A stretch of DNA of 64,000 bases from a virus: the IMG/VR virus record IMGVR_UViG_3300042314_000343, positions 1-64,000 of that record. The stretch is one strand, 5' to 3'. The notes beneath the pieces are model-generated. The model worked only from the letters and a program-made list of their open reading frames with translations, made no database searches and was not told where the DNA came from. Below are positions 6,722-34,194 of this stretch, in pieces. The first letter of the stretch is position 1, and each line of letters opens with the position of its first letter. Made by a program: the position numbers and the translations under genes.

Positions 6722-7009
6722 ATGGACAAGAATGCTTGGAAAAAGGGAGCAGACTGCCTTGGCATGGATGTTAACTCATTCTTTGATGACTATGAAGAAA
6801 ATCTAGACGTTAGAGAAGAAGTTGACGCTATCTGTGCTGCATGTCCTATAGCAAGGCATTGCTTTGCAGTTGGCGTGTCCCAAAAGGGATGGGGGGTCTG
6901 GGGAGGTGTTTACCTTGAAAACGGTAAGATCTCTCGTGAATTCAGTAAACATAGAACAAAGGCCCAGTGGGCAAGCAAGTGGCAACAGCTTACAATGGAC
7001 AAGGGGTAA
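6722..7009 (+). CDS. whiB: WhiB-family Fe-S transcription factor
   Basis: Four Cys (C...CAACP...C) and GVWGG turn. Confidence 0.92.
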   Translation: MDKNAWKKGADCLGMDVNSFFDDYEENLDVREEVDAICAACPIARHCFAVGVSQKGWGVWGGVYLENGKISREFSKHRTKAQWASKWQQLTMDKG

Positions 7010-13871: not shown

Positions 13872-14261
13872 GTGAGTTATAAAGAAGATATTTTAAGACT
13901 GAGGCTAGAAGGAAAAACCTATAGCCAGATCAGTGAAGAGCTTGGTTGCTCAAAGGGAACAATCGCATACTATATGAAACAGCAAAATGAGGAAGAGGTT
14001 ACTGTGTCAGACATCAACAATGAGTTCTACAGCAAGGTTATTGCATACGTTGATAACTTTAAGGAGAAGCGACCATGTAATGATTGTGGACAATACCTCC
14101 ACAAGAGTCAGCTAGATGCACTATCGCCATCAGCTCTTCATGAGATTGCCAGTGCTGTTTTTGATAAGAAAACTTTTGAAGAGTCAAAGCGTAGGATTTC
14201 GCAGCTAAAGTTTGTTTGTGCTAACTGCAACAGGCTAAGAGAGTTTAAGGCTAACAATTAG
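13872..14261 (+). CDS. HTH + degenerate HNH protein
   Basis: GKTYSQISEELGCSKGTIAY HTH; CNDC...VCANCN. Confidence 0.7.
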   Translation: MSYKEDILRLRLEGKTYSQISEELGCSKGTIAYYMKQQNEEEVTVSDINNEFYSKVIAYVDNFKEKRPCNDCGQYLHKSQLDALSPSALHEIASAVFDKKTFEESKRRISQLKFVCANCNRLREFKANN

Positions 14262-20176: not shown

Positions 20177-20464
20177 CTATACCGCCTCTGGAATCGTTAG
20201 TGTCATTATTCGTGTTGGAACCTTTGTAGTTTCATACACAAGGTCAGTTACATCTTCAAGACCACGCTCATCTGCAATCTGCTTGGCGTGTTCGTATGTC
20301 AATCTTAGGTTCTCAGCACCCTTGTCTGTCAAGGTAGCAAATCCGAAATCAACTGCGAATGCCAGCGGTAGAGAAATGTTCTCTTGGTTTACCCACTCAA
20401 TAACATTTGGGTTCTCATCGTGCTCTGTGCCAATGAATGATAGTGCCTTGATAATTTCTTCCAT
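20177..20464 (-). CDS. Hypothetical protein
   Basis: Start moved to MEEIIK (leaderless); the track ATG overlaps the TATAAT box. Confidence 0.7.
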   Translation of the reverse strand: MEEIIKALSFIGTEHDENPNVIEWVNQENISLPLAFAVDFGFATLTDKGAENLRLTYEHAKQIADERGLEDVTDLVYETTKVPTRIMTLTIPEAV

Positions 20465-20494
20465 AGTATCCATTATACCCTTACCCTCCGACTT

Positions 20495-20704
20495 TTAGAA
20501 CAGACTTGTCTGCTCGTATGCGTTTTCTTTTTCCCACTCTGCTGACTCAGTTACTACTAGCAATCTGTTGTAATGGACATTCTGCATTCTTGCTATGTTT
20601 CTTCCTACTTCGTCAAGGTTGATAGTAATTGGTTCTAGCAACTGAACAATCTGCTCTGCTACTTTTTCTTCTCTGCTCTTTGGTAATCGTCTGCTTCTTG
20701 CCAT
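20495..20704 (-). CDS. Hypothetical protein
   Basis: AAGGAGAG SD; TTGACA-N17-GATAAT promoter. Confidence 0.75.
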   Translation of the reverse strand: MARSRRLPKSREEKVAEQIVQLLEPITINLDEVGRNIARMQNVHYNRLLVVTESAEWEKENAYEQTSLF

Positions 20705-20864
20705 TTGGTTGCTCTCCTTGTGTCCATTATCTCATAAGTTGTAGAGGGTGTCAAGGAAGAAAGTAGGAAATCCTTGACACCCCCTGTGTGATACGATGAG
20801 CGACCCCTCACTCATTTGCCGTATCACGTCCCACTGGAGTAGTCTCGACAGTGGGAATCTTTGT

Positions 20865-21251
20865 TTAGTTAGTTAGTCTATCGCCATAGTTACCAGACTC
20901 CAGGTCCTCCCAGTACTTTGGCAATCGATCGAAATACTCTTTGAGTCTGTCTGAAAGCTTGCTCCAGTAGTTCTTTCGGAATTCCTCCAAGCCGTACCAT
21001 AGGTCAGCCTCATCTTTAAAGTAATCATCTCTATTAAATCCAATAGACTGAATCTCTTCAGCTGTTAGGTCAATAGGGTCATCCCACTCATCTTGGTTAC
21101 CGTCCTTATATGCATAGACGTGAATCTTCCAGGACGCTGGGTCAAAGTAGCTATCGCCCTTGTCCTCGTCGTACTCTTCAGGCATGAAGATATTGAGGTC
21201 CCACTCAATGTGCTCCTTGCCTGCATTCTTATTACGCTTATCCAACATAGT
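20865..21251 (-). CDS. Acidic hypothetical protein
   Basis: Track ORF 20865-21308; start uncertain, likely near the upstream stop. Confidence 0.6.
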   Translation of the reverse strand, partial: TMLDKRNKNAGKEHIEWDLNIFMPEEYDEDKGDSYFDPASWKIHVYAYKDGNQDEWDDPIDLTAEEIQSIGFNRDDYFKDEADLWYGLEEFRKNYWSKLSDRLKEYFDRLPKYWEDLESGNYGDRLTN

Positions 21252-21630
21252 TTGTGACATATCCACTACCCTCACATTTCTCACAGTCTGGGTCTCCCCA
21301 GTTATCATTACGCTTTACTAGAACATCTTCTTCTTCGCTGTAGCACTCGCACTCTTCTTCCACGGAAAGAAGAACATAGTCGTCCTCGTCTTCCCAAGGA
21401 ACCTCACAGACATAATAGCTAAGTCTGTTTACAAATGAGTAGCCTGCAACAATAAGTGTTGACAAGTCTGCGTCAACAAGTGTCCAGACATACCTCTGGT
21501 CTAGAGACCTGACATAGTCAACCTCTTCACCATAGGTTTCGAACTGTTGCTCATCATGCTTCCTAAAATGATTAGTCTTAGGCTTGAACTTTGCTTCCCA
21601 CTCTGCCCAACCCTGATACTCTGTTGCCAT
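21238..21630 (-). CDS. Hypothetical protein with C-terminal Cys motif
   Basis: AGAAAGTAGGAAAT leader; CEC...CEKCEGSG. Confidence 0.75.
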   Translation of the reverse strand: MATEYQGWAEWEAKFKPKTNHFRKHDEQQFETYGEEVDYVRSLDQRYVWTLVDADLSTLIVAGYSFVNRLSYYVCEVPWEDEDDYVLLSVEEECECYSEEEDVLVKRNDNWGDPDCEKCEGSGYVTNYVG

Positions 21631-21643
21631 TATTTCCTACTTT

Positions 21644-22168
21644 CTAAAAATGGAAGTCTACAAATACAAGATACCAGTTTTTGTTGCCTGTGTCAATACT
21701 TTCCAACATATATTTTGTATTGGTTGTCTCGTGATACATGTCGTAGAAGTAAGAGTTGAAATCCCACTTGCCCTGTGTCATGTCAATCATCTTGTGTAGG
21801 TCATACAGCTGGAACCCAAAGTCCATTTGTCCGTTATAGCTATCAAGAACACTGTTTATATCAACATTCTTATTGTTGAAAGTTTGGCGGTAGCGATTGA
21901 ATTCCACCATACGTTCTGCAATAGCTTCATCGACAGTATCAAGAAACTTCTTAGGCTCTTCATCATATGAGATAGTCATAGACTGGTCTTCTTCATCATA
22001 GACGTCGCTACCGTTGTCATTCCAACGTCCGCCTCCAGTTATAAACCAGTCATACCAAGAGGATAGGTTATACTCGTCACCCATTTCATTCTCAAGATAA
22101 TCTTTGACTAAACGGAATGCGTGGTCTTTGTCTTCTGCTTGAACTGCTATACGTTGCAATACGTGCAT
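21644..22168 (-). CDS. Hypothetical protein
   Basis: WYDWFITGGGRW...VDFHF; AGAAAG leader. Confidence 0.8.
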   Translation of the reverse strand: MHVLQRIAVQAEDKDHAFRLVKDYLENEMGDEYNLSSWYDWFITGGGRWNDNGSDVYDEEDQSMTISYDEEPKKFLDTVDEAIAERMVEFNRYRQTFNNKNVDINSVLDSYNGQMDFGFQLYDLHKMIDMTQGKWDFNSYFYDMYHETTNTKYMLESIDTGNKNWYLVFVDFHF

Positions 22169-22189
22169 GGGGTTACTTTCTACTAGGGT

Positions 22190-22414
22190 CTAGAATATAT
22201 TATACGCTGAAAAGTCTGAATTGTCAACAGCGAATCTCTGTGCATTCATCCACGCTGCTTCGCCAAAGAAATACTTAGGCTTGCCAGAAACTGGGGAAAC
22301 TTTATAGAAGTCGTAATACTTGTCTGCCTCATATACTGAGACACCACTGTTGTGGAAGATCCTGGTCCACGTTGTGGATCCAACGGATGGTTTCTTAGAT
22401 ACGTGTACTTGCAT
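22190..22414 (-). CDS. Hypothetical protein
   Basis: MQVHVSKK start coupled to the upstream 32-aa ORF. Confidence 0.65.
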   Translation of the reverse strand: MQVHVSKKPSVGSTTWTRIFHNSGVSVYEADKYYDFYKVSPVSGKPKYFFGEAAWMNAQRFAVDNSDFSAYNIF

Positions 22415-22512
22415 TATTCTCCATAACACTTAGGGCAAATTTCATTGGTGTCTTCAAATGAATAGTAAAAGTTACCGTCTACTATTGGTGCTTCGCATTC
22501 ATAGCACTTCAT
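22414..22512 (-). CDS. 32-aa CxxC...CxxC microprotein (not in ORF track)
   Basis: MKCYECEAP...ICPKCYGE*; AGAAAGTAGGA leader, TTGACT-N17-GATAAT promoter. Confidence 0.65.
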   Translation of the reverse strand: MKCYECEAPIVDGNFYYSFEDTNEICPKCYGE

Positions 22513-23453
22513 GAAATCCTACTTTCTTGATACTCAATTATCTCAGAAACTGGGGAAAAAGTCAAGAGGTTCTTAATAGGTATTTTATGACAGTCAGTAC
22601 TGCTTGTCATGATTGCCTGGATCTGGGCCCCCCCGAAGGGGTACCTTAGTTAGATAAAATCGATGATGTCACCATCAAAACCACCCATATCCAAGTCGAA
22701 CATAAGGTCACGATAAGAAATTTCTCCATTAGCTGCCATCTCAAATAGTTCTACTACTTGCTCGTTGTCCATTAGTCATCCTTTTCTTGTAGGGAAGCAA
22801 TTAGTATACCAAGAACCTGTCTTGGTGTCAAGATGTCTAGTGCTGGATTGTCCATAGCACTTTCAATTATTTTGATGGCATAGGCAAGTCCATCTTCCAT
22901 ACCTGCCTCGTAGCCAATCTGCTCCATCTCTGATACAGCCATTAGCAACTCCCATCGTTAGGAATCTCATTCTCTGGCACACCCATCATACGCAATACTG
23001 ATTGGCTTCTGTCAATGACCCCAATAATGTAATCAGAAAAACTATCGTTTATGTCAAGTTCATTCTGCTGAATCATTAGGTCAAGAATGTCTGTCTTCAG
23101 ATAGTCAATGATTTCTTCATTAGTCTTCAACAACTGTTGCCTCCCATACTCCGTCAGGTAGATTAGCGTGATACTCTAGTGCTAGGTCAATAGCCTCGTC
23201 TTCGTCTAATGCTTCCACATCATACTCACAAACATAAGTAACTAGATACTTCTTCATTACACATTCTCCAACATCTCTGCTAGTCGCTGCAATTGTTCTG
23301 GGGTAAGGCTGTTTAGAACATCCTCGTTGATTAGATTACTGTTAGTCCAGTCACTCACTTATTCCTACTTTCTCTCTCAGTTCCTCGTCTGACAAGGATA
23401 CTATTTTATCAAGACCCTCTGACATTATTACATCCAGCAGTTTGCGAAAGTTC

Positions 23454-23702
23454 TCAATCATTCCAGCCAGCCTCTTCTTCTAATGTATAAGGGTTTAGTT
23501 TGTGATTGAAATACATTTCTTGGCACGGCATACAGAAACCAAGTTCCTCGTGCCATACATCTTCTTCTACCTGTGTTCCGCAATAAGCAAATCTATTACA
23601 GGGTAGATAACCATTAGACTCATACTCTTGGTTACCCTCACAGATACGACAGAACGGGTTGCAGTCAAAACTACCATTGTGGTTGGGGCATACTTTTATC
23701 AT
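23454..23702 (-). CDS. Cys-rich hypothetical protein
   Basis: Leaderless MIKVCPNH after TGTCAT-N10-TATAGT; the track start lies inside the promoter. Confidence 0.7.
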   Translation of the reverse strand: MIKVCPNHNGSFDCNPFCRICEGNQEYESNGYLPCNRFAYCGTQVEEDVWHEELGFCMPCQEMYFNHKLNPYTLEEEAGWND

Positions 23703-24377
23703 AGTATCCACTATAGCAGGGGGGTATGACATTATAGAATCTCCACTTCAACGGCCTGGTTCAACTCACCATACTTTACAAAGCTATAGATATCGTCAAT
23801 GTACGATGCCCTGACATATTCCAGCAGGTCTTCTTTGGTCAGATTCTCCATTATCGGATCCTCGTCTGGGTAGTAATCAAAAGTAATACTAGCTCTGATA
23901 ACCCTACTCATACATACCATCCTGAATCTATCTTTACAAAGTGTGTAAGCTTAGCTACCTTATTAGCAATGTAGGTTCCATTGCGTCTTGCCTTAGCTCT
24001 TGATACTGTCATCGGTGTCTCCTACAGGTAGCTTCTTTGTGTCCCATTTTCTTGGCGGTAGATAGCCAAGACTTATAACAACCCATACATACATAAGAAT
24101 CATACGGGTCACCCTTCTTCTTCATAAGATAGATAGTACCGTCACCGTAAGTTGGTAGGTCATCCCTCCAAGACTTAGTCTTCATCTTCCCACTCTTCCC
24201 ACTCTTCTACATAACGCTCAACAGCTTCACATAGAGCTTCCCAAGCTGAATCCGAAAGGTATTCAGGTCTTTCAATGGTAAAGGTATCACTCATCGTCTT
24301 CCTCACTATCTCCATTATCAAAGCCTATCTCACGAAAGAAAGAATCCCATACTCCTCCTGGAGTTGGTTCCCAAGTG

Positions 24378-24569
24378 TTACTCACCATCTTCGTCTTCCT
24401 CTTCCTCGTCTAGTTCCTCAACATCAATAGAGTAAACGCCGTCATAAGTGATTGCGTTGTCATAAGTGTCACCCCAAGATGTCCAAGCCAATTCCTCAGC
24501 GTGTTCCTTTGAATCTGCCTCAATCTCTCCAGCAAAATCAACTTTCATTTGAACATAAAATCTAGCCAT
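24378..24569 (-). CDS. Acidic hypothetical protein
   Basis: GGAAAGGA SD, own -26-type promoter. Confidence 0.75.
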   Translation of the reverse strand: MARFYVQMKVDFAGEIEADSKEHAEELAWTSWGDTYDNAITYDGVYSIDVEELDEEEEDEDGE

Positions 24570-24735
24570 TAGATTTCCTTTCCTACTTGCTTACAAGTAT
24601 AGGGGTAGGGTCTGACATTATCAAGAGATTCTGGGAAATATTTTGTAAGGTTCTTAAAGGTTTATTTGTGAGTAAAAGGTTTGATATACATTGATGGGTT
24701 CTGGGGCCCCCGATCGAACATGCCAAAAGTGGAAT

Positions 24736-24762
24736 GGGCAGTTTTACTACATACCCAGGTAG
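24736..24762 (-). ncRNA. 27-nt H-type pseudoknot, copy 1
   Basis: CTAC-CT-GGGTA-T-GTAG-TAAAAC-TGCCC just 3' of the DUF932 stop. Confidence 0.7.
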
Positions 24763-24768
24763 GAATAC

Positions 24769-25767
24769 TTAGTTAGCCAAAACCAACTGAAGCAAGCGGT
24801 TTTTCTCTGCTGTGGTCACAGGGTCGAAACCAGATGCAGCAGCGAGAATACTCTCGTTAGTTCCACCTCGTGCTGAGCGATACCAATCCAAGCGTTCGGT
24901 TAGAGCGTTGAAAGCACCCCACTTGGTTCCAGCAATGGTGTTGTTGAAGTCACCAACATAGATACCGTTGATTAGGTCAATCTTGTCGTTGTGCTTCTTG
25001 AATGAACCCTTAGCGTCTTTCTCTGGTGCAGGGTAAGCAAGAGCAACAATCTTGTCGAACTGTGCCTTGGTGATTTCGGTCTCAATCATAGCTTTTGCCA
25101 TTTCATCGAACTTGTCCATATAAGCATTTGCCAAGCCTAATGCCTCACGTGCCTGCTGAACCTTGCCAGAAGCGGTAGCGGTGTGGCGAATCTTGAAGGT
25201 CTGCTTGATACCCTTGTTGCCCTTGCCAAGTGCTAGGTTTAGAGTGTTTGCACAGACAACACGCACAGGTGTAATGCTTGCCTGAATTGCCACTGAACCA
25301 TCGTGAGAGGTGTTGATTAGAAGATAAGTGTTTACCTTATCAGACACGCCGTTAGGGTCAAGAACGGTTTCACGCTCAAGAGCAAGCGAACCAAAAACCT
25401 GTCGTCCTCCCTTGATAGAACCAGCGGTCTCCCAGCGACCTCCGCCGTCTAGCATTAGGTCTCCAAAGTCAAATAGGTCTTCGTTCTGCAATGGAACATA
25501 ACGCTCACCAACTACGCCAAGAACATCGTTCTTAGTGTTGTCGAATGGGTTAGTGCGAGTGACAAAAGAGTAAGCCTTGTCAGAGGTGAAGGTGTCTGGA
25601 ATTGCTACGTCCTCTAGGCGAACATTCCACTTGTCAAGGTGTGCCAGCTTTAGCATTTCTGCGGTGGTAACTTCCTCAGTGAAGACAGTGCCAAGTCCGT
25701 GCCAAGCAGGTTCACGCAAAGAAGCAAAAGAGGTCTGTCCGTTTACGGTTTCTAGTTCGTGTGCCAT
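24769..25767 (-). CDS. DUF932 (TIGR03299-like) phage/plasmid protein
   Basis: MAHELE, PAWHGLG, ETAGSIKGGRQVF, NTSHDGS, TPVRVVCANTL, IRHT. Confidence 0.88.
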   Translation of the reverse strand: MAHELETVNGQTSFASLREPAWHGLGTVFTEEVTTAEMLKLAHLDKWNVRLEDVAIPDTFTSDKAYSFVTRTNPFDNTKNDVLGVVGERYVPLQNEDLFDFGDLMLDGGGRWETAGSIKGGRQVFGSLALERETVLDPNGVSDKVNTYLLINTSHDGSVAIQASITPVRVVCANTLNLALGKGNKGIKQTFKIRHTATASGKVQQAREALGLANAYMDKFDEMAKAMIETEITKAQFDKIVALAYPAPEKDAKGSFKKHNDKIDLINGIYVGDFNNTIAGTKWGAFNALTERLDWYRSARGGTNESILAAASGFDPVTTAEKNRLLQLVLAN

Positions 25768-25949
25768 ATGATTTCTTTCTGTTGGGGATTACTGATAAGA
25801 CAATTATACAGTGTAGGTCTGACATTGTAAAGAATCTGGGGAAAAATAATTAGACATCTTAAATAACGTTTTGGTTACGATCATTGATCTGGTGGCTGGG
25901 GGGCCCCACAACTACCCCCAGACTGTCAAGTCCAGGGGTAGCGTGTTGG

Positions 25950-26498
25950 TTACCTAACTAATTGAGAATCCTTACAGCTCACAAGGTAGTCATCTACGCT
26001 CATCTCACGAATGCTCTCAAAAGCCAAGACTAGAGAGATGTCCCAAGAACCCTTATACTTACTAAACTGGGTGTGGAAAAGTTCTCTGTCCAAGTCTACG
26101 GTGTAGATACCCTCGCAGAACAACTCGTCATTCTCAAACTCTAAGTCTCTGACAATAGGGATAGGGGAATCGTCCCAGTCAGCGATTACCCTGAAAATCT
26201 CTCCACCAGTATCTCTGGTTAGAGTTGGAAACTGCTCCGCAAACTTCTTGCCAGAATCCATAGACATAGACCCGTCCATAACTCCGTCCTGAAATGGCTT
26301 TAGAAGTGCTTCCACATCAGAGTCGCTGGGGTAGTAAATCTGTGGAATCTTATCAATAAAAGCCTTCACCACATCAGGGTTAGTCAGGGTATGGAATAGG
26401 GTAACACCCTGTCCCTCTGGATAGTGGTCCCATTGTCCATACTGGGCAACGATAACCTGATTCTTGTAGATAACCTTAGTTAGTCCTCTAGTTCCCAT
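25950..26498 (-). CDS. Hypothetical protein
   Basis: MGTR...YGQWDHYPEGQG; own promoter and SD. Confidence 0.8.
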   Translation of the reverse strand: MGTRGLTKVIYKNQVIVAQYGQWDHYPEGQGVTLFHTLTNPDVVKAFIDKIPQIYYPSDSDVEALLKPFQDGVMDGSMSMDSGKKFAEQFPTLTRDTGGEIFRVIADWDDSPIPIVRDLEFENDELFCEGIYTVDLDRELFHTQFSKYKGSWDISLVLAFESIREMSVDDYLVSCKDSQLVR

Positions 26499-26545
26499 TA
26501 TTCCTACTTTCTATTTAGATTATTATAAACTGGGGGTATGACATT

Positions 26546-26749
26546 TTAGAAGTCAACTAGAATGTCTTGGTCTACTCGTCTACCATACTCAAAAGCCAAG
26601 TTCTCGTCAATGATTTCTATTTCACCAGAACCATTGTCCCACTCCTCAGCAACGCTGGCTGGTAGGTCATCGGTGTCAAGAACATAGATAACACGGTTAG
26701 GCTGGTATTCCCACCAGTCACCATTCTCGTTTGCGATAAAAATTGCCAT
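26546..26749 (-). CDS. Hypothetical protein
   Basis: Start moved to MAIFIANE after AGAAAGGA. Confidence 0.75.
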   Translation of the reverse strand: MAIFIANENGDWWEYQPNRVIYVLDTDDLPASVAEEWDNGSGEIEIIDENLAFEYGRRVDQDILVDF

Positions 26750-27013
26750 TTGTATCCTTTCTTTAGTTATCTTATTATGACACAACCCTCTGACATTATC
26801 AATATCCAGCTTTTGGGGGGCCCCCGATCCAGGCAAAGAAAAACCACCCAAGCGAGGGTATCAGGTAGTATCATTTCTGACCTATGCTTCAACCGATAGC
26901 AGGGTGGTGTTCTTCGCCTCACAGCCTTGCGGTATTGCTAATGCTTGTTTCTTGTATCGTGGAAACCACCACGCTTGTAAGCCGTTGCCTAGGACACTTA
27001 CAAGAGGTCTAGT

Positions 27014-27040
27014 GAGCAGTTTAGACACTTGCTCAGGTGT
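27014..27040 (-). ncRNA. 27-nt H-type pseudoknot, copy 2
   Basis: ACAC-CT-GAGCA-A-GTGT-CTAAAC-TGCTC just 3' of stop at 27047. Confidence 0.7.
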
Positions 27041-27046
27041 GTCCCC

Positions 27047-27502
27047 TTAGATAAGGTCAATCACAGAGGAGTAGGAACTTGCGTTCACTTCCTCTTGAGA
27101 GGTCATCTTTAGGATACGAAGGTTCTTCTCAAGAATTGCCTTACGGGTGGTGTATTCCCTGCCAAAGTGCTGGTTGGTGTTTGGCTGTTCTGGCTTTACA
27201 GGCTTCTTTGGGAAGTTGGCAATAACTGAGATGTCCAACTCAATCTCAAACTTGTTCTGAGAGTAGTGGTTCTGAACTAGACGAATGGTGCTGTCATACT
27301 CAAAGCCAATCTTGTCAGCGTTGTTAGTGATGTAGTTGGTGGCAAACTTAGTTACCTCAGACTTGTATGCCTCTAGGTCTGCCTCATACTGCTTTACCTT
27401 CTCAGGGTAAGACTCAACATCAGCGTCAATCTGGGCAATAGTTGCCTCAATGTCAGCGATTAGAGCAGAGGTTGGGATTTTTACGGAAAGGGTTCTAGCC
27501 AT
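27047..27502 (-). CDS. Hypothetical coiled-coil protein
   Basis: Own promoter and AGAAAG leader. Confidence 0.8.
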   Translation of the reverse strand: MARTLSVKIPTSALIADIEATIAQIDADVESYPEKVKQYEADLEAYKSEVTKFATNYITNNADKIGFEYDSTIRLVQNHYSQNKFEIELDISVIANFPKKPVKPEQPNTNQHFGREYTTRKAILEKNLRILKMTSQEEVNASSYSSVIDLI

Positions 27503-27589
27503 TTCTTTCTACTTTCTTTTGGGTTAGTTACATTATAGGGGAAGGGTGTGACATTTTGGGTAGTTTATTGTGATACCCAGCACATCTGC

Positions 27590-27811
27590 CTAGAAAATAC
27601 CGAATACCTTCTTGCGAGGTTCAGTAATAGTCTTGACAATGACCTTTGGTTCTGGCATAGCCAAGAAACGGGTCTGGTTGGTAGCACCATCAAAAGTGCC
27701 GTTTGGGTTGCGAACAACTGCCTTGATACCTTCGCCAGACTTGGTGTTCCAAATCTCGGTGCGAACTTCTAGGCGTTGGTTTTTCTTCTGTGAAATAATC
27801 TTTCCAGACAT
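27590..27811 (-). CDS. Hypothetical basic protein
   Basis: Own promoter and GAGGA SD. Confidence 0.7.
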   Translation of the reverse strand: MSGKIISQKKNQRLEVRTEIWNTKSGEGIKAVVRNPNGTFDGATNQTRFLAMPEPKVIVKTITEPRKKVFGIF

Positions 27812-27920
27812 TTTATTCCTCTTTCTTTTCAGGGTAGTTCTATTGTAAAGGTGGGGTATGACATTTTAGTAAGAGGGGGGATAGAGAAAGGATAAGAAAC
27901 GCTATCCCCCCAAGACTAAA

Positions 27921-28067
27921 TTACTTTACAGTAGTCCAGCGGTCTTGACCATTTACATCAAGACGAACACGGAACGAACCCGTCTTGTTCTGGATTACTT
28001 CCTGAATTACACCTGACACGCCAGACTTAGCGGTGGTGAACTGTGAGCCAACAGTTAGAGTGTTCAT
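27921..28067 (-). CDS. 48-aa SH3/KOW-like microprotein (not in ORF track)
   Basis: MNTLTVGSQFTTAKSGVSGVIQEV...RWTTVK* with AGGAAG SD. Confidence 0.65.
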   Translation of the reverse strand: MNTLTVGSQFTTAKSGVSGVIQEVIQNKTGSFRVRLDVNGQDRWTTVK

Positions 28068-28273
28068 TTTGCTTCCTATTCCGCCCCAGAGGGACTGTTT
28101 TGATTATTTACCAACTTTTGTTGATAGGTCTATTATGCCAGAAAAATGAATAAACCACAAGAGGGAAACACTATTTTCTTTACAAAGTTTTGGGGGATTT
28201 TTTGTAGGTTTCGTAAATTGACAAGCAGTAGGCTGGGGGGGGCTCCGTTAGATCTTTGGGGGCCCCGAAAGGT

Positions 28274-28300
28274 GGCCAGTTTTACGTCATGGCCAGGACG
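28274..28300 (-). ncRNA. 27-nt H-type pseudoknot, copy 3
   Basis: CGTC-CT-GGCCA-T-GACG-TAAAAC-TGGCC. Confidence 0.7.
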
Positions 28301-28363
28301 TGGTCCGCAATGCATGTTAGTTAGAAAGGATATGCGGACCGTCCCATATTCCCCTATGAGAAT

Positions 28364-29080
28364 TTACTTTTTAGACCTAGAGAATAGGATGTCATTACGC
28401 TCATAGACACACTGGCCACAGGTAACGCAGGCAGAACCCTTATCACTAATTAGTTTTAGTTTCTTGTTGTTTTCAGGGCAGGGCACAGCAGACTTTACAG
28501 TTATCTCTAGCATACGCTCTTTGCCAGCTGCAAAGTTTTCTGCAAGGTATGCAAGCTTGACGCCAGTAGTTGCTTTTAGCTTACTTGCCAATTCAAAGTT
28601 AGCGTCATCAGCTGAAAAGTAAAGTGCTAGGTTTGGAATGTTCTGCAATACAGGAACCGCAAAGTCGCTGCGAGTGTATACCCAGAATTGAGTATCAGAA
28701 TGCTTTTTGATTACGGTTGCCCAAGCAATGGCATACTGAACACTAAAGAAGTCGCCGTCCCAGTGAATGCGAAACAGCTTGTCTGCATTACGCTTGTCAC
28801 AGTCTTTCTTGAAGTCAATAATCATCTCATCAAGCAACATAACCATTTGAGGATACTTAGCGTCCTTGAGTTGGTTCCAATTGTCAACTAGAATGTCTTT
28901 AACACCCTTGTAAATTCTTTCAAGGTTGCCAGCATAACAAATTTTTTCGCAAACGGATGTTGCTCCAGGGCATGAGTAAGCCTTGCCAGAAGGCAGACCA
29001 AAGGTGTTGGCAATGGTTGGCGTCTTACCGTTAGGGGAGACGGCGTTGGTTACTTTTCTATCTTTTGAACGTCTTAGCAT
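28364..29080 (-). CDS. GP88-like (radical-SAM-related) phage protein
   Basis: SCPGATSVCEKICYA, FRIHWDGDFF, WVYTRS, ACVTCGQC; start MLRRSK after GAAAGGA. Confidence 0.75.
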   Translation of the reverse strand: MLRRSKDRKVTNAVSPNGKTPTIANTFGLPSGKAYSCPGATSVCEKICYAGNLERIYKGVKDILVDNWNQLKDAKYPQMVMLLDEMIIDFKKDCDKRNADKLFRIHWDGDFFSVQYAIAWATVIKKHSDTQFWVYTRSDFAVPVLQNIPNLALYFSADDANFELASKLKATTGVKLAYLAENFAAGKERMLEITVKSAVPCPENNKKLKLISDKGSACVTCGQCVYERNDILFSRSKK

Positions 29081-29176
29081 TTGGGGGAATCCTTTCAACT
29101 AACTACAGTATAGGATATGGGTCTGACATTTTTAGCAGCATGTCTATGATCTGGGGGGCCCCCGAAGGGGTAGAGG

Positions 29177-29458
29177 TTAGTCCTCTAACCCTTCCTCATC
29201 AAGTTCCAGCCAAGGGTCAAGGTGATGTTGCTCAATGATAGCCGAGGTTGGAGCGTGAGTTCCACCCTTCCACTTGACAGGCTTAGGCAACTCAACAGGC
29301 TTATACCATCTACCCTCAAGAGCGTTCTGGATAGCCTCAATACAGGCTGGAACCATAGAAACTGGAACAGGTGGATAGTGGTTGCTCTGCAAGTGCCAAG
29401 CGATAGCGTCTTCCATAGATAGCATTTCTGCCATTTCTACTGCCTGAAGTGAACCCAT
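29177..29458 (-). CDS. Hypothetical protein
   Basis: MGSLQA...WHLQSNHYPPVP; coupled to upstream stop. Confidence 0.7.
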   Translation of the reverse strand: MGSLQAVEMAEMLSMEDAIAWHLQSNHYPPVPVSMVPACIEAIQNALEGRWYKPVELPKPVKWKGGTHAPTSAIIEQHHLDPWLELDEEGLED

Positions 29459-29640
29459 TAGTTGCTCTCCTTTTCTGCCTTGATTTCGGCTAGTTTTCTT
29501 TCTGCGTATTCGATTAGTTCTTCTTGCTTTGCCTTGGTTAGAGAAGTCCACACCATACCAAAGGCGAAGGCATAGGGACTAGAGTAAGGACCACTGCCTA
29601 CTCGCTCTTTCGCATACTCAATCATCTTGTCGCTGTTCAT
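29458..29640 (-). CDS. Hypothetical protein
   Basis: AGAAAGGA SD, own promoter. Confidence 0.75.
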   Translation of the reverse strand: MNSDKMIEYAKERVGSGPYSSPYAFAFGMVWTSLTKAKQEELIEYAERKLAEIKAEKESN

Positions 29641-29687
29641 CTGTATCCTTTCTAAGTTAGTTAGAGATTACCATAGGGGACTGACAT

Positions 29688-29825
29688 TTATTTCCAGAAC
29701 TCATACTTCATTTGAATTACAGCGTATTCAATTAGTTCTGCTTCAATGCCCTTCAACTCTCTACCAATGATTTTGACAGCGTGTTCCTTGATGTAGTCCA
29801 TTACTTCTGGGGTAGTGAGTTCCAT
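29688..29825 (-). CDS. Hypothetical microprotein
   Basis: Start moved to MELTTPE, downstream of the promoter at 29867-29888. Confidence 0.6.
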   Translation of the reverse strand: MELTTPEVMDYIKEHAVKIIGRELKGIEAELIEYAVIQMKYEFWK

Positions 29826-31077
29826 TACTTTACCAACTTTCTTGCTGAGGGGTGTCCAACTCTTATAGCATAGCATTGGGGGCAGACATTTATTGTTTTG
29901 ATAGTGAATAGGTTTCTAGTTAGTTTGTTACAGTCAAAGCAGTTGTAGTTAGTCATTTCGCAACTCCCAACCATTTATCCAGCCAGCCTCATACCAACCC
30001 TTTACCAAGTCAATAGTTTCCTGCTTGCTTGCCTCATCAACCCAGATAGGGGATTCGCTAAAGTCCTTGTGAATTGCTACTACCTTCATTAGTTGCCACT
30101 TTCTCTAATAGCCTTGTTTTTGTTACTCTGGCGTGTGCCTTTGTATTTGTCTGGGGTGACAATTTGCTTCTTGCCAGCCTTTAGCATTTGTCCAAATAGT
30201 GCTTGGCTCTCAGCCTTGCGTCTTGCTTCATTTCTTTTACCTAACATACCTGAAGTATAACAGGATGGTCTGACATTTTGGGGATATTTTTTAATGTTTC
30301 GTAAGAAAATTTTTGGGAAAATTTCGGGGGCTCTCTTAAAGAGTTCTTAAAGATATTTATAGATCATGCCCAGGGTGATCTGGTGGATCGGGGGTAGGCG
30401 GTTGGGGTACCCTCCTAGTCGAAGGCGTACCTAGAGGCATACAGTTCACCGATAGCCTGCTCCTCCCGAAGGCGAGCCTGAGCCAAGTCAGACTTAGCCT
30501 GCTCCTCTGGGGAGAGAGTCTCCTCCTCCCAGAAGTCGTCGTCCAGCGACCAGCCAAAATCCTGTGCCATATCTTCCATAGTTTATCCTCTCTAACCTAC
30601 CTATAACCTATCACACCCCACGGACATTTAGCAACATTGGTTTATAACAGTTTGATAACGGGGGGCCCCATTCGGGCGTGTCGTTTAGAACTCAGGTCGC
30701 TCGCAGTCGCCGTATTCGTGTCCACAGCAAGGGTAGTCTTCACATCTCATAGTTTATCCTTTCAATTACTTATAGATTACATCAGGGGTCAGACTTTTAT
30801 CGATCCTTGGCCTGGGCCCCCGAAACTCAAGATTTGTCAAATCCTGGTTCGGCGTGTCGCCTAGAATGGTGGCTTGTTTCTTTCCACACCCTTGCGGTAG
30901 CCAACTCCGTGAGCAACTACAAACACTAGGGCAACTAGGACTAGGTCTACTAGTAGGTTGAATCCGTTGTAAAAAATCATCTCTATCTACTTTCTTCTGT
31001 TAGGAATAGCTTATCAGGGGTATCAGACAACATCAAGTCTATTTTCCAAATTAGTTCTTCTAGTTCTGCAATAGTCA

Positions 31078-31227
31078 TTATACCAACTCCAAGTATTCTT
31101 CTGGGAATGTTTCACCAAGATAAGACTTGGCATCTCTCAAGGGCATTAGTCCCTTGTAGTCGTTGCACTCGTGGCAAACATAGTCGTTCACCAAGTTCAT
31201 ACAAAACACGCAAATCTGTTCTGACAT
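31078..31227 (-). CDS. Small CxxC/CxxC protein
   Basis: MSEQICVFC...CHEC; the track start lies in the ATGTCAG promoter element. Confidence 0.7.
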   Translation of the reverse strand: MSEQICVFCMNLVNDYVCHECNDYKGLMPLRDAKSYLGETFPEEYLELV

Positions 31228-31276
31228 TTTTACCTTCTTTCTATTTGTTATAAACTTATCGGCAGGGTCTGACATT

Positions 31277-31486
31277 TTAGTTCAGACTATTTAGCAATTC
31301 TAGGTTTCTTAGGCTAGCTCCAGGCTTGGAGAAGTCTAGCTCTCTGGTAAGTAGCACCTTACGCTGACGGCACACGCCAAGAGTGTGAGTAGTCTCCCAC
31401 AACTTCTTGTCTAGGCGGTAAGAGACATTGGTGGTCTGAGACATACCGCACCCGTTGCAGGTGGTCTTGCGATACATTGTGGTCAT
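31277..31486 (-). CDS. Small Cys-containing protein
   Basis: MTTMYRKTTCNGC; the track start lies in the ATGTCAG promoter element. Confidence 0.7.
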   Translation of the reverse strand: MTTMYRKTTCNGCGMSQTTNVSYRLDKKLWETTHTLGVCRQRKVLLTRELDFSKPGASLRNLELLNSLN

Positions 31487-32325
31487 TGGGATACCTTTCT
31501 TTCTAACTACTACAAACCTAGCACATAGGTCTGACATTTATGAGTAGCGTTTGGTAACAGTTTGGTAACATTGCTAAATCCTATATCTAGTGGGTGCAAG
31601 ATCTTTCGGCACTACATATTGTGGGGGGGCCCGAAACCAGGGGATCTGTCAAATCGACACGCCGTGTTTTACCAACTTTTCTTGGTGCCGAGTGACTTAG
31701 CCAATTTGATTAGGTCAGATACCTGCTTGATTTCTGAATCATCTGGAATTCTATCCCCAATGATTTCAATCATTATGTCAATCTCACGCTCAACCTCTGA
31801 TAGGGAGAGAATGTCTAGCTTGCGAAAGTTCTCCATTAGTTTACCTCCTCTGGCTTTAGGTCTACCAAGCCAAGTCTAATCTGGGTGAGAGTATACTCAA
31901 CCATAGCCTCTTCCATAGCGGTTAGGTCACGCTCTAGGACACCCTGCAACTTTGCTACTAGGATACCCTTGGTCTCATCTGTGATTTTTGCTTGTAGCAT
32001 TTATTCCTTCTTTCTAACTTATCTAAAATCTAGCATAGGGGTCTGACTTTTTACTTACTTACTGACTCGCAGTAGAAGCAGTCATCTGAAATTGTCTGAG
32101 GAACAATTCCGTGAAACTCGCAGTTGTAGGCTACATCCCTACCATTTACTTTCTTAGTTTCTACATTTTTCATTTATTTATCCTTTCTTTATCTACCTAT
32201 AGTCAATCAGATAATTAGTCATTTGTCAAGCTTATTTAGGTAAACATTAGGTAAACAATTTGTAACAGATAGGTAACGACGGGGGCCCACAAAAAACCTG
32301 GTATGTCAAGTGACACGCCCTACAT

Positions 32326-32532
32326 CTAGTACAGGCTTGTACTAAACATAGGCTTGACCAACTCAACAGGGTCTTTAGCCTCAACTAAAGTGTAGTCAGA
32401 CACCTTGTTAGGCTTGTCTGAACACTCGTGAAAGTCAAAGGCTGACTTAGCCATACGGAGATTGGAAGCGATCTCCTCATTACCGCAAGAGTCGCACTCT
32501 ACTAGGTATCCACTCGTTGTAACTCTGAACAT
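32326..32532 (-). CDS. Small zinc-binding protein
   Basis: CDSC...HEC; AGAAAGGATAA SD; own promoter. Confidence 0.75.
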   Translation of the reverse strand: MFRVTTSGYLVECDSCGNEEIASNLRMAKSAFDFHECSDKPNKVSDYTLVEAKDPVELVKPMFSTSLY

Positions 32533-33089
32533 TATTTATCCTTTCTAACTACCTATACACTAACAGGTAGGTCTGACATTTTTAGTTAGCACCTAGGTTG
32601 ACGATAGAACCGTCTTCCAACTCAATGCGATATCCCTGAATCTCTAGGTTCCAGTAAGCCTTAGTGTAGAAGCCAATAACCTCAGCCTTGTGCTGTGGGT
32701 CAAAGCCATAGGTGGTCTCAGTGTTGTCGTTGTTTCTGGTAGTTACTAGCATTTCTTTTATCCTTTTTCTTTCTTTCTTTATACTTATACTATAGTGCCT
32801 ATGGGCGACATTATTAGACTGAATTGCTTGTTATTTAGGTTAACATTAGGTTAACAATGGGGCCCCCATTTCGGGGTACTTGTCAAGCTACCTAAGACTA
32901 GTAACGAAGTAGAGTAAGACTAAAGGTATCGATCTCACCAGTACGAACCATCTGAGTGTAAGCATCGAATGCAGTGTAGTAGTGCTCAGGGTCGAAGAAG
33001 TATTCGGTTCTGATTCCGTCTTTTAGAACTGTTGCTTTCATTTCTATCCTTTGTTTGATAAGTCTATTATGGGGTAGGTGTCTGACTTT

Positions 33090-33299
33090 TTAGTTGGTGA
33101 ATCCTGGTAGCTTGATGAATGACTCACCGTCTGCCATTGCACAAGCAAAAGTCTCATCGCAGTAGCCGTAGTCTGGAATTCCTGTATACTCAGCAGAACA
33201 AGTGTCGCACACTACGAACACGCCCTCACACTGAACGGTATACATAGTGCCGTCTAGCAACTTTACCTGAGTTCCCTTGTTCTCTACTACTACTGACAT
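33090..33299 (-). CDS. Small Cys-rich protein
   Basis: C...CDTC...C...C; AAGGAAAG SD; own promoter. Confidence 0.75.
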   Translation of the reverse strand: MSVVVENKGTQVKLLDGTMYTVQCEGVFVVCDTCSAEYTGIPDYGYCDETFACAMADGESFIKLPGFTN

Positions 33300-34194
33300 T
33301 TGCTTTCCTTCTTTCTTGATACTTATAATTTAGTAGATGGCACTGACATTGTCAAATTAAACACACATTATTGTGTAACATTTTTATAACAGCAGGGGCC
33401 CACAAAAAAATCGGTATGTCAAGCGACACACCTCATTCCTTTAGAGTATTAGTGGATTTCTCCATACTCTTCCCAGCAACCTGGGCAAGCATACTCGCCC
33501 TCCTCTGCTACGAAGATTTTTTCTACTACTACATCACATAGTTCACAAGTTGAAAACATTTTTTATCCTTTCTATGTTTTTCTTTATTTATCTTTATATA
33601 CATATTCAATCACAGAAATGGCTGTTTGTCAAGTCTATTTGCGTGTTTCTAAATGAACGTTAGGTTAACAAATCATTGGGGTGGCACGGGTGCTCTTGGA
33701 TCTTGAACCTGGATGTGTGCTCACTAAAAAAGAGTTGTTTTCTTTTAAAAATCATGCATCATACATCTCTGCAAAATATTCAGATTTTGGTCATTTTGCT
33801 TTTTAAAATTTTTTTCAGAATGCTCCAGGAGGCAAAAATATATTTTTTCAGATTTTGCAAGTATCTATTATAACAATTCGATAACGAAATAGTAACATAG
33901 CACAAATTTGGGTATATATTATAACGTTTTGGTAACATTTATATAAACATTCTGTTATTTTTGGGGGTATAATAGATCTATGAGTGAAACTCCAGTAAAG
34001 AACAATCCAGAATGCAAGTGTGAAAGCTGCAAGTGTGGAAAGAACTAGTCTTCTTTAGAATATAAACAAGACAATTGCTCTGATAGATGCTATCCAGGCA
34101 TAAACTATTGCTGCGTATCCAGCTAACCTAAGAAATTTCTTTATTTTCATACTATTAGTGTATCAAAATTCGACGGTACACAATGGCGAAGCCA

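Follow-up and report, generated by a model that had tools for sequence, protein, structure and literature searches.

The window analysed here is a 64-kb stretch of viral DNA, the first 64,000 nucleotides (nt) of the IMG/VR contig IMGVR_UViG_3300042314_000343, which is 103,317 bp long, has a guanine-plus-cytosine (GC) content of 43% and carries a CheckV completeness estimate of 95%. Within it lies a leftward block of about 13 kb and some 45 small genes, along which 23 minus-strand sites of the form AA-[T/A]GTC-ag-N10-TAnnnT recur between 20472 and 33348. These sites resemble the promoters of the actinobacterial activator PafBC and are the subject of this report. The block is called "early" or "takeover" below, a role that we infer from gene size and layout. 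The 23 sites, taken as candidate promoters, and the genes that follow them are listed in their order along the minus strand (lengths in amino acids, aa; ORF, open reading frame):

33327-33348, minus strand: promoter 1, TGTCAG-N10-TAAATT, hybrid with a TTGACA -35 at 33350-33355; gene 33090-33299 (69 aa)
33066-33087, minus strand: promoter 2, AGTCAG-N10-CATAAT; gene 32898-33041 (47 aa)
32789-32810, minus strand: promoter 3, TGTCGC-N10-TATAGT; gene 32582-32752 (56 aa)
32557-32578, minus strand: promoter 4, TGTCAG-N10-TAGTGT; gene 32326-32532 (68 aa)
32027-32048, minus strand: promoter 5, AGTCAG-N10-TAGATT; genes 31836-32000 and 31669-31836
31515-31536, minus strand: promoter 6, TGTCAG-N10-TAGGTT; gene 31277-31486 (69 aa)
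31253-31274, minus strand: promoter 7, TGTCAG-N10-TAAGTT; gene 31078-31227 (49 aa)
31008-31029, minus strand: promoter 8, TGTCTG-N10-TAAGCT; gene 30861-30980 (39 aa)
30774-30795, minus strand: promoter 9, AGTCTG-N10-TAATCT; Cys-rich ORF of 21 aa, 30685-30750
30605-30626, minus strand: promoter 10, TGTCCG-N10-TAGGTT; gene 30415-30579 (54 aa)
30254-30275, minus strand: promoter 11, TGTCAG-N10-TATACT; gene 30089-30247, ATG 6 nt past the -10 and possibly leaderless, then three more small genes to 29825
29867-29888, minus strand: promoter 12, TGTCTG-N10-TATGCT, within the preceding ORF's 3' end; gene 29688-29825 (45 aa)
29665-29686, minus strand: promoter 13, TGTCAG-N10-TAATCT; gene 29458-29640, then 29177-29456
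29107-29128, minus strand: promoter 14, TGTCAG-N10-TATACT; GP88-family gene (PF17338) ending at 28364, start ATG 29080 or TTG 29098
27842-27863, minus strand: promoter 15, TGTCAT-N10-TACAAT; gene 27590-27811 (73 aa)
27532-27553, minus strand: promoter 16, TGTCAC-N10-TATAAT; gene 27047-27502 (151 aa)
26774-26795, minus strand: promoter 17, TGTCAG-N10-CATAAT, hybrid with a TTGATA -35; gene 26546-26749 (67 aa)
26522-26543, minus strand: promoter 18, TGTCAT-N10-TATAAT; gene 25950-26498 (182 aa)
25803-25824, minus strand: promoter 19, TGTCAG-N10-TATAAT, hybrid with a TTTACA -35; DUF932 gene 24769-25767 (332 aa)
24596-24617, minus strand: promoter 20, TGTCAG-N10-TATACT, hybrid with a TTGATA -35; gene 24378-24569, then a series of small genes to about 23732
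23710-23731, minus strand: promoter 21, TGTCAT-N10-TATAGT; gene 23454-23702, ATG 23702 lying 7 nt past the -10 (leaderless type)
23403-23424, minus strand: promoter 22, TGTCAG-N10-TAAAAT; small ORFs from about 23356 to 22650
20472-20493, minus strand: promoter 23, AGTCGG-N10-TATAAT; gene 20177-20464, ATG 20464 lying 7 nt past the -10 (leaderless type)

A preliminary description of this DNA had reported 23 such sites, and a pattern search recovers exactly that number, from 20472 to 33348, with [A/T]GTC-N12-[T/C]ANNNT in an A-rich 5' context; this looser form allows A at position 1, any base at positions 5 and 6 and C at the first -10 position. The exact form TGTCAG-N10-TANNNT has 10 matches, every one of them minus-strand and within 23403-33348, against 1.03 expected, and none of 100 shuffles reaches 10. 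Together with the one site that reads CATAAT (26774-26795), these are the 11 TGTCAG sites counted earlier. Over the 23 sites GTC is invariant and AA stands directly upstream in 22; within the hexamer, position 1 is T in 19/23, position 5 is A or G in 19/23 and position 6 is G in 18/23, and the -10 has its T in 21/23, its A in 23/23 and its final T in 23/23. These key positions stay fixed amid free variation in the wider flanks and in the 7-10 nt that separate the conserved blocks.

The strongest statistic for the motif is its spacing. On the early minus strand GTC-N(k)-TANNNT gives 22 matches at k = 12 and between 1 and 6 at each other k from 6 to 19, in agreement with the fixed 10-nt spacer first described. 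The motif is also confined to the block, as had been noted for part of the genome: the rest of the 103,317 bp contains no comparable site in the same context. Most sites have a GAAAGGA-type ribosome site with an ATG 23-41 nt downstream of the -10. In three cases, 20472-20493, 23710-23731 and possibly 30254-30275 (minus strand), an ATG instead follows the -10 by 6-7 nt, and these three may direct leaderless messenger RNAs (mRNAs), with the ATG at or beside the transcript start. Leaderless mRNAs are an actinobacterial hallmark. The starts concerned are 20464, 23702 and possibly 30247 (minus strand), and two of them have the identical leader ggatact-ATG.

The motif derived from chromatin immunoprecipitation of PafBC is tGTCgg(N10)tA(N3)T, with the 5' part at -23 to -28 and no -35 (Mueller et al. 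2021, PMC8635444). In mycobacteria the winged helix of PafB sits at -28 to -23 and PafC on the sigma factor's domain 4, an arrangement termed sigma adaptation that replaces recognition of a -35; residues R46 and R50 of the PafB helix-turn-helix (HTH) read the two guanines of GTC, a triplet strictly conserved across actinobacteria, and without PafBC the holoenzyme of the housekeeping sigma factor SigA does not recognise these RecA-NDp promoters (PMC8635444). The phage sites agree with every upper-case position of this consensus and with its register, their GTC falling at -27 to -25, and the PafBC likeness claimed in the preliminary description thus holds at the level of sequence.

We regard it as fairly probable (roughly 0.65) that host SigA polymerase and host PafBC together read these phage promoters. 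The TAnnnT box would be the -10 recognised by SigA, and the AA-TGTC-AG box, its invariant GTC within -28 to -23, would be the PafB contact position and the substitute for a -35. Host PafBC, constitutively present and activated by single-stranded DNA (ssDNA), would supply the activator function. The ssDNA of infection, whether from DNA entry, phage replication and recombination or breakdown of host DNA, would then switch on or boost the 13-kb block of about 45 small genes. What we infer beyond the pattern itself is binding by PafBC, triggering by ssDNA, the host's identity, the genes' timing class and a titration of PafBC.

For this reading the host matters. The phage encodes a portal, tail fibres, Pol III alpha, DnaB, RecA, a class Ib ribonucleotide reductase, ThyX, eight transfer RNAs and a WhiB-family protein:

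6722-7009, plus strand: WhiB-family gene (95 aa), marker for actinobacterial hosts, outside the promoter set

The presence of this gene points to a host of that kind. The portal shares 47% identity with that of Streptomyces BE-cluster phages (Stanwilliamsviridae), the nearest cultured relatives, and many lake-water metagenomes contain DNA nearly identical to the contig; this is an uncultured freshwater (lake) actinophage. Mycobacterium smegmatis, which had been proposed for tests of the promoters, would therefore be a heterologous host, the phage being a lake virus of 43% GC and no mycobacteriophage. The best host clue that we found is the class Ib NrdE/NrdF pair at genome positions 97426-100484, whose NrdF is 79-84% identical to that of freshwater actinobacteria with small genomes (1.3-1.6 Mb), Aquiluna among them, a likeness that suggests a host lineage and falls short of proof. 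Assignment by GC content was rejected. Streptomyces genomes typically have about 70% GC, and the Streptomyces phage NootNoot has about 50% over its first 50 kb, far below its host genus, which makes GC unfit for the purpose.

Genomes of the candidate lineages carry the proposed activator. In each of the five with the closest NrdF there are two adjacent WYL ORFs of 310-370 aa, and in the complete Aquiluna genome the order is a WYL-WCX ORF, an HTH_PafC-WYL-WCX ORF, a 111-aa ORF occupying the tatA position, tatC and a gene for a helY-like helicase, which by its gene order is the classical pafBC neighbourhood. WYL domains occur in all 121 genomes sampled across the class, a statement that does not depend on the three unpublished genomes in that sample (G069, G074 and G081). 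The element itself is also present. Upstream of recA there is exactly one GTC-N12-TAnnnT in 5/5 candidate genomes and in 29/30 further genomes of the same GTDB family (34/35), for example TGTCAG-aggcaaaggt-TAGGTT in one of the five. The family form is (a/g)A-TGTC-(A/G)G-(A/T)GG...TAnnnT, which shares with the phage sites the A at -1 and RG at +4/+5. In two candidate hosts, WATGTCNK-N10-TANNNT has 6 and 3 matches, against 1 and 0 in the control, numbers too small to define a regulon; they include recA and a DUF6504 gene.

The pattern extends well beyond this phage. A search of 1.3 Mb from 80 related loci of viruses yields 1219 copies of GTC-N12-TANNNT on the gene strand, compared with 224-326 at other spacings; the box there is AATGTC(A/G/T)G, with ACCC, AGGG or TGGT after it. 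Several related phages have TGTCGGTGGT or TGTCAGTGGT at 10-19 sites each, and both variants agree with the host-family recA form aATGTC(A/G)G(A/T)GG. The orthologue of promoter 19, in front of the DUF932 gene, is kept in most of the 80, and the promoter pattern persists although the DUF932 proteins are 75-92% identical to that of the phage. Close relatives of this gene are found in no fewer than 597 IMG/VR contigs. An IMG/VR scan for AATGTCGGTGGT-N6-TANNNT found at least 120 stretches, of which those with several same-strand copies per contig (up to 12) fit the clade; by a rough estimate, singleton matches are within chance. In NootNoot the homologous region lies at the left end of the genome, where eight promoters between 1300 and 9300 on the minus strand read gGTTGnnnnn-TGTCC(C/T)-N10-TAGACT. 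Their TGTC register is that of the lake clade, but a -35-like TTG stands two bases upstream of it and the AA flank is missing.

The relation of the element to the -35 required correction. The preliminary description had held the motif to be incompatible with a -35/-10 promoter, which is wrong: the -35 position falls 1 nt upstream of TGTC, and the two can be combined. At 19 of the 23 sites no -35 is present and an A-rich stretch takes its place; a sigma-70 scan calls only four sites, and a TTGACA-like hexamer 16-18 nt upstream of the -10, the canonical SigA criterion, is found at those 4/23 only. Near-consensus SigA promoters without GTC stand in the same leftward block:

22803-22831, minus strand: near-consensus SigA -35/-10 promoter without GTC
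22537-22565, minus strand: the same type
22199-22227, minus strand: the same type, matching the consensus at 12/12 positions
20726-20754, minus strand: the same type

Sigma-70-like promoters also lie upstream, at 33.9-34.4 kb. The coexistence of two promoter classes in the block suggests that they are separated conditionally or in time.

Two other repeats accompany the promoters. GTGTC..TTGACA boxes recur between the gene cassettes at 33413-33432 and, in similar form, near 32290-32320, 31630-31660, 30830-30870 and 30660-30690 (minus strand). They consist of two hairpin arms followed by a T run, as in an intrinsic terminator, and a GGGCCC(C) box comes after them; since they form such a hairpin, the apparently perfect -35 in them is probably a stem arm and no decoy promoter. 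Four exact copies of T(C/T)CCCAGnnTCT (22286-22297, 22545-22556, 24626-24637 and 25831-25842, minus strand) lie just upstream of a promoter -35 region or overlap it, and the box is found in relatives too, before the DUF932 promoter.

Several observations weigh against PafBC as the reader. Four of the 23 sites are hybrids, with TTGACA, TTTACA or TTGATA at 17-nt spacing (33348, 25824, 24617 and 26795). The AA and ACCC flanks are more uniform within the phage than the published PafBC motif requires, which may indicate concerted evolution or some other reader. In the phage, +6 to +9 read mostly ACCC, versus (A/T)GG(C/T) before host recA, a mismatch at +7 to +9. With a weight matrix built from the 34 host recA promoters and corrected, only four phage sites reach the weakest host score; the low number is explained by gene-specific positions that recA orthologues share, and we do not regard the matrix, which before correction, scored against the phage background, was dominated by the GC-rich host spacer, as a fair model of a regulon. 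Among the relatives, most DUF932 promoters also have a consensus -35, and about nine drive the gene from a plain TTGACA-17-GATAAT without GTC, which shows the element to be dispensable at least there. The 43% GC of the phage is far from the 50-60% of the genomes with the closest NrdF, and the NrdF likeness is no more than a clue to the host. Finally, an inducible activator is awkward for the first genes of a lytic phage unless infection itself supplies the ssDNA. The earlier proposal of PafBC-type promoters is thus upheld in part: the sequence features, the 19 sites lacking a -35, and the pafBC genes and recA element of candidate hosts speak for it; the four hybrids speak against it, and its branch with a phage WYL mimic falls away.

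The principal alternatives replace PafBC by something else. One is that a non-WYL phage protein recognises AA-TGTC-AG, either a MotA-like activator of a middle class or a shut-off repressor acting on all these promoters together, the resemblance to PafBC sites being due to convergence or competition. We consider this unlikely, although it would account for flanks that are more uniform in one phage than the PafBC consensus demands and that differ between relatives (ACCC versus TGGT); TGTCAG is, moreover, the reverse complement of the -35-like CTGACA, and the block encodes about 45 small early proteins without known function. Convergence or chance explains poorly that about eight positions and the exact spacing agree with the host recA element, and a repressor needs no invariant spacing to a -10.

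A search for such a protein yielded one candidate. The preliminary description had allowed for a phage WYL mimic elsewhere in the genome; this is out, as a six-frame search of the whole genome found neither WYL nor HTH_PafC, and five complete relatives have no WYL domain. Sigma70_r2 (sigma region 2) was likewise absent from the six-frame search of the phage genome, and with respect to a T4-type activator or co-activator the negative result covers WYL, HTH_PafC and sigma region 2, the MotA and AsiA families not having been searched directly. Having no PafBC of its own, the phage would depend on that of the host. HTH_11 gave a single weak match in the phage:

13872-14261, plus strand: 129-aa protein with an N-terminal sigma-r4/GerE-like HTH and C-terminal Cys pairs (profile match)

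The existence of this protein is in favour of a phage-encoded reader. Three of the five complete relatives lack it, however, and the remaining two match it over the C-terminal part alone, while all five keep the promoters; the protein was rejected as the conserved promoter reader because it is not itself conserved. It has no homology to the NootNoot DNA-binding protein gp029 and probably represents an accessory or mobile gene for a DNA-binding protein.

Equally improbable in our judgement is that the sites are plain SigA promoters relying chiefly on the -10, as most actinobacterial promoters do, with TGTC as a spacer element inherited in this lineage which, independently of PafBC, adjusts promoter strength by way of DNA shape or a different host factor. 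NootNoot lends this some weight, since its eight early promoters (TTGnnn-nn-TGTCC(C/T)-N10-TAGACT) combine a -35-like TTG with TGTC in flanks unlike those of RecA-NDp, as do the hybrid sites of the phage and the relatives that swap the element for a plain -35. It leaves unexplained why 19/23 sites lack a -35 and yet all have GTC at one exact distance, why the element stands in the same register before recA in 34/35 genomes of the candidate host family, and how SigA would act at all where the mycobacterial holoenzyme fails to recognise such promoters without PafBC (PMC8635444). That the sites are merely an intergenic cassette spread by duplication, with no role in transcription, is very improbable: ribosome sites, terminator hairpins and GGGCCC boxes do recur between genes as well, but spacer and wider flanks vary freely around fixed key positions, orientation and distance to start codons are kept, the pattern survives in relatives whose DUF932 protein is only 75-92% identical, and three sites predict leaderless mRNAs starting at or next to the ATG.

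Reading by host SigA and PafBC would set the phage beside several known systems. With RecA-NDp promoters it shares the tGTCgg-N10-tAnnnT register, an invariant GTC near -26, a SigA-type -10 and, mostly, the lack of a -35; it differs in having 23 such sites within 13 kb, before small genes of no annotated function and not before repair genes, in its specific flanks (AA upstream, ACCC downstream) and in its four -35 hybrids, and its dependence on PafBC is a prediction. To our knowledge, PafBC-type promoters are known only as an actinobacterial DNA-damage regulon, and a full-text literature search returned no report of PafBC or RecA-NDp-type promoters in phages. A study by Rafique and colleagues from 2025, cited in PMC12848934, reportedly links pafBC, by its title, to mycobacteriophage resistance.

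The middle promoters of T4 combine a MotA box at -30 with a sigma-70 -10, and T4 encodes its own factors and remodels sigma. There too, an upstream box at a fixed distance from a housekeeping -10 replaces the -35 and defines a temporal gene class, and a factor lies between sigma domain 4 and DNA, as is proposed for our phage; the difference is that this phage, without a recognisable factor, would use an unmodified host activator. Sigma appropriation by AsiA and MotA has been discussed alongside sigma adaptation (PMC8635444). The dense, one-direction array of small genes, in which each gene or pair has a promoter and often a terminator of its own, is shared with phages SPO1 and T5. Their takeover clusters contain many small genes with strong housekeeping -35/-10 promoters of their own, in or near the terminal repeats; such plain promoters are the minority here. 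Phage genes under SOS/LexA control and WYL defence regulators (BrxR, CapW and DriD) have in common with the proposal that expression is tied to a host DNA-damage or ssDNA signal, and most of them work by derepression or govern single operons, unlike the activator proposed here at more than 20 promoters. Cluster A mycobacteriophages have stoperators, many asymmetric 13-bp repressor sites that contain TGTCAAG and are oriented with transcription. They too are a multi-copy, single-orientation short motif with TGTCA in a phage genome, but their distance to a -10 is not fixed and a phage repressor binds them, whereas no repressor of that kind was identified in our phage, and the spacing of its sites is invariant.

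More tentatively, the entire abundant lake-actinophage clade (at least 597 DUF932 contigs) might run a temporal gene class through host PafBC, with ssDNA as the timer and no factor of its own, and 20-35 sites per genome, multiplied by replication, might soak up PafBC and so blunt the damage or anti-phage response of the host. We think this doubtful as a whole. If PafBC does read these promoters, this would be the first virus with a gene-expression class built on a host WYL, ssDNA-sensing activator, at 20-35 sites per genome in a widespread lake clade, and a factor-free counterpart to the MotA/AsiA switch of T4. The finding gives a concrete and testable link between PafBC and phage infection, and the more than 1000 variant -26 elements form a natural library for defining what PafBC reads. 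Its ecological weight comes from the hosts, as phages of this clade infect abundant freshwater actinobacteria.

Some minor observations concern the window and the block. CRP-type sites (TGTGA-N6-TCACA, up to 2 mismatches) are not enriched in the window, with 37 matches against 40.9 expected. Lake metatranscriptome contigs from two runs cover parts of 20-33 kb, and in both the deepest contig coverage is at 27011-28078 (genes 27047-27502, 27590-27811 and 27921-28067); the contigs carry neither starts nor strands and may include DNA, and the coverage is accordingly no verdict on transcription. The 21-aa Cys-rich product of 30685-30750, which has a promoter to itself, and many of the small products at 31-33.6 kb (minus strand) have paired CxxC motifs of a zinc-ribbon-like kind.

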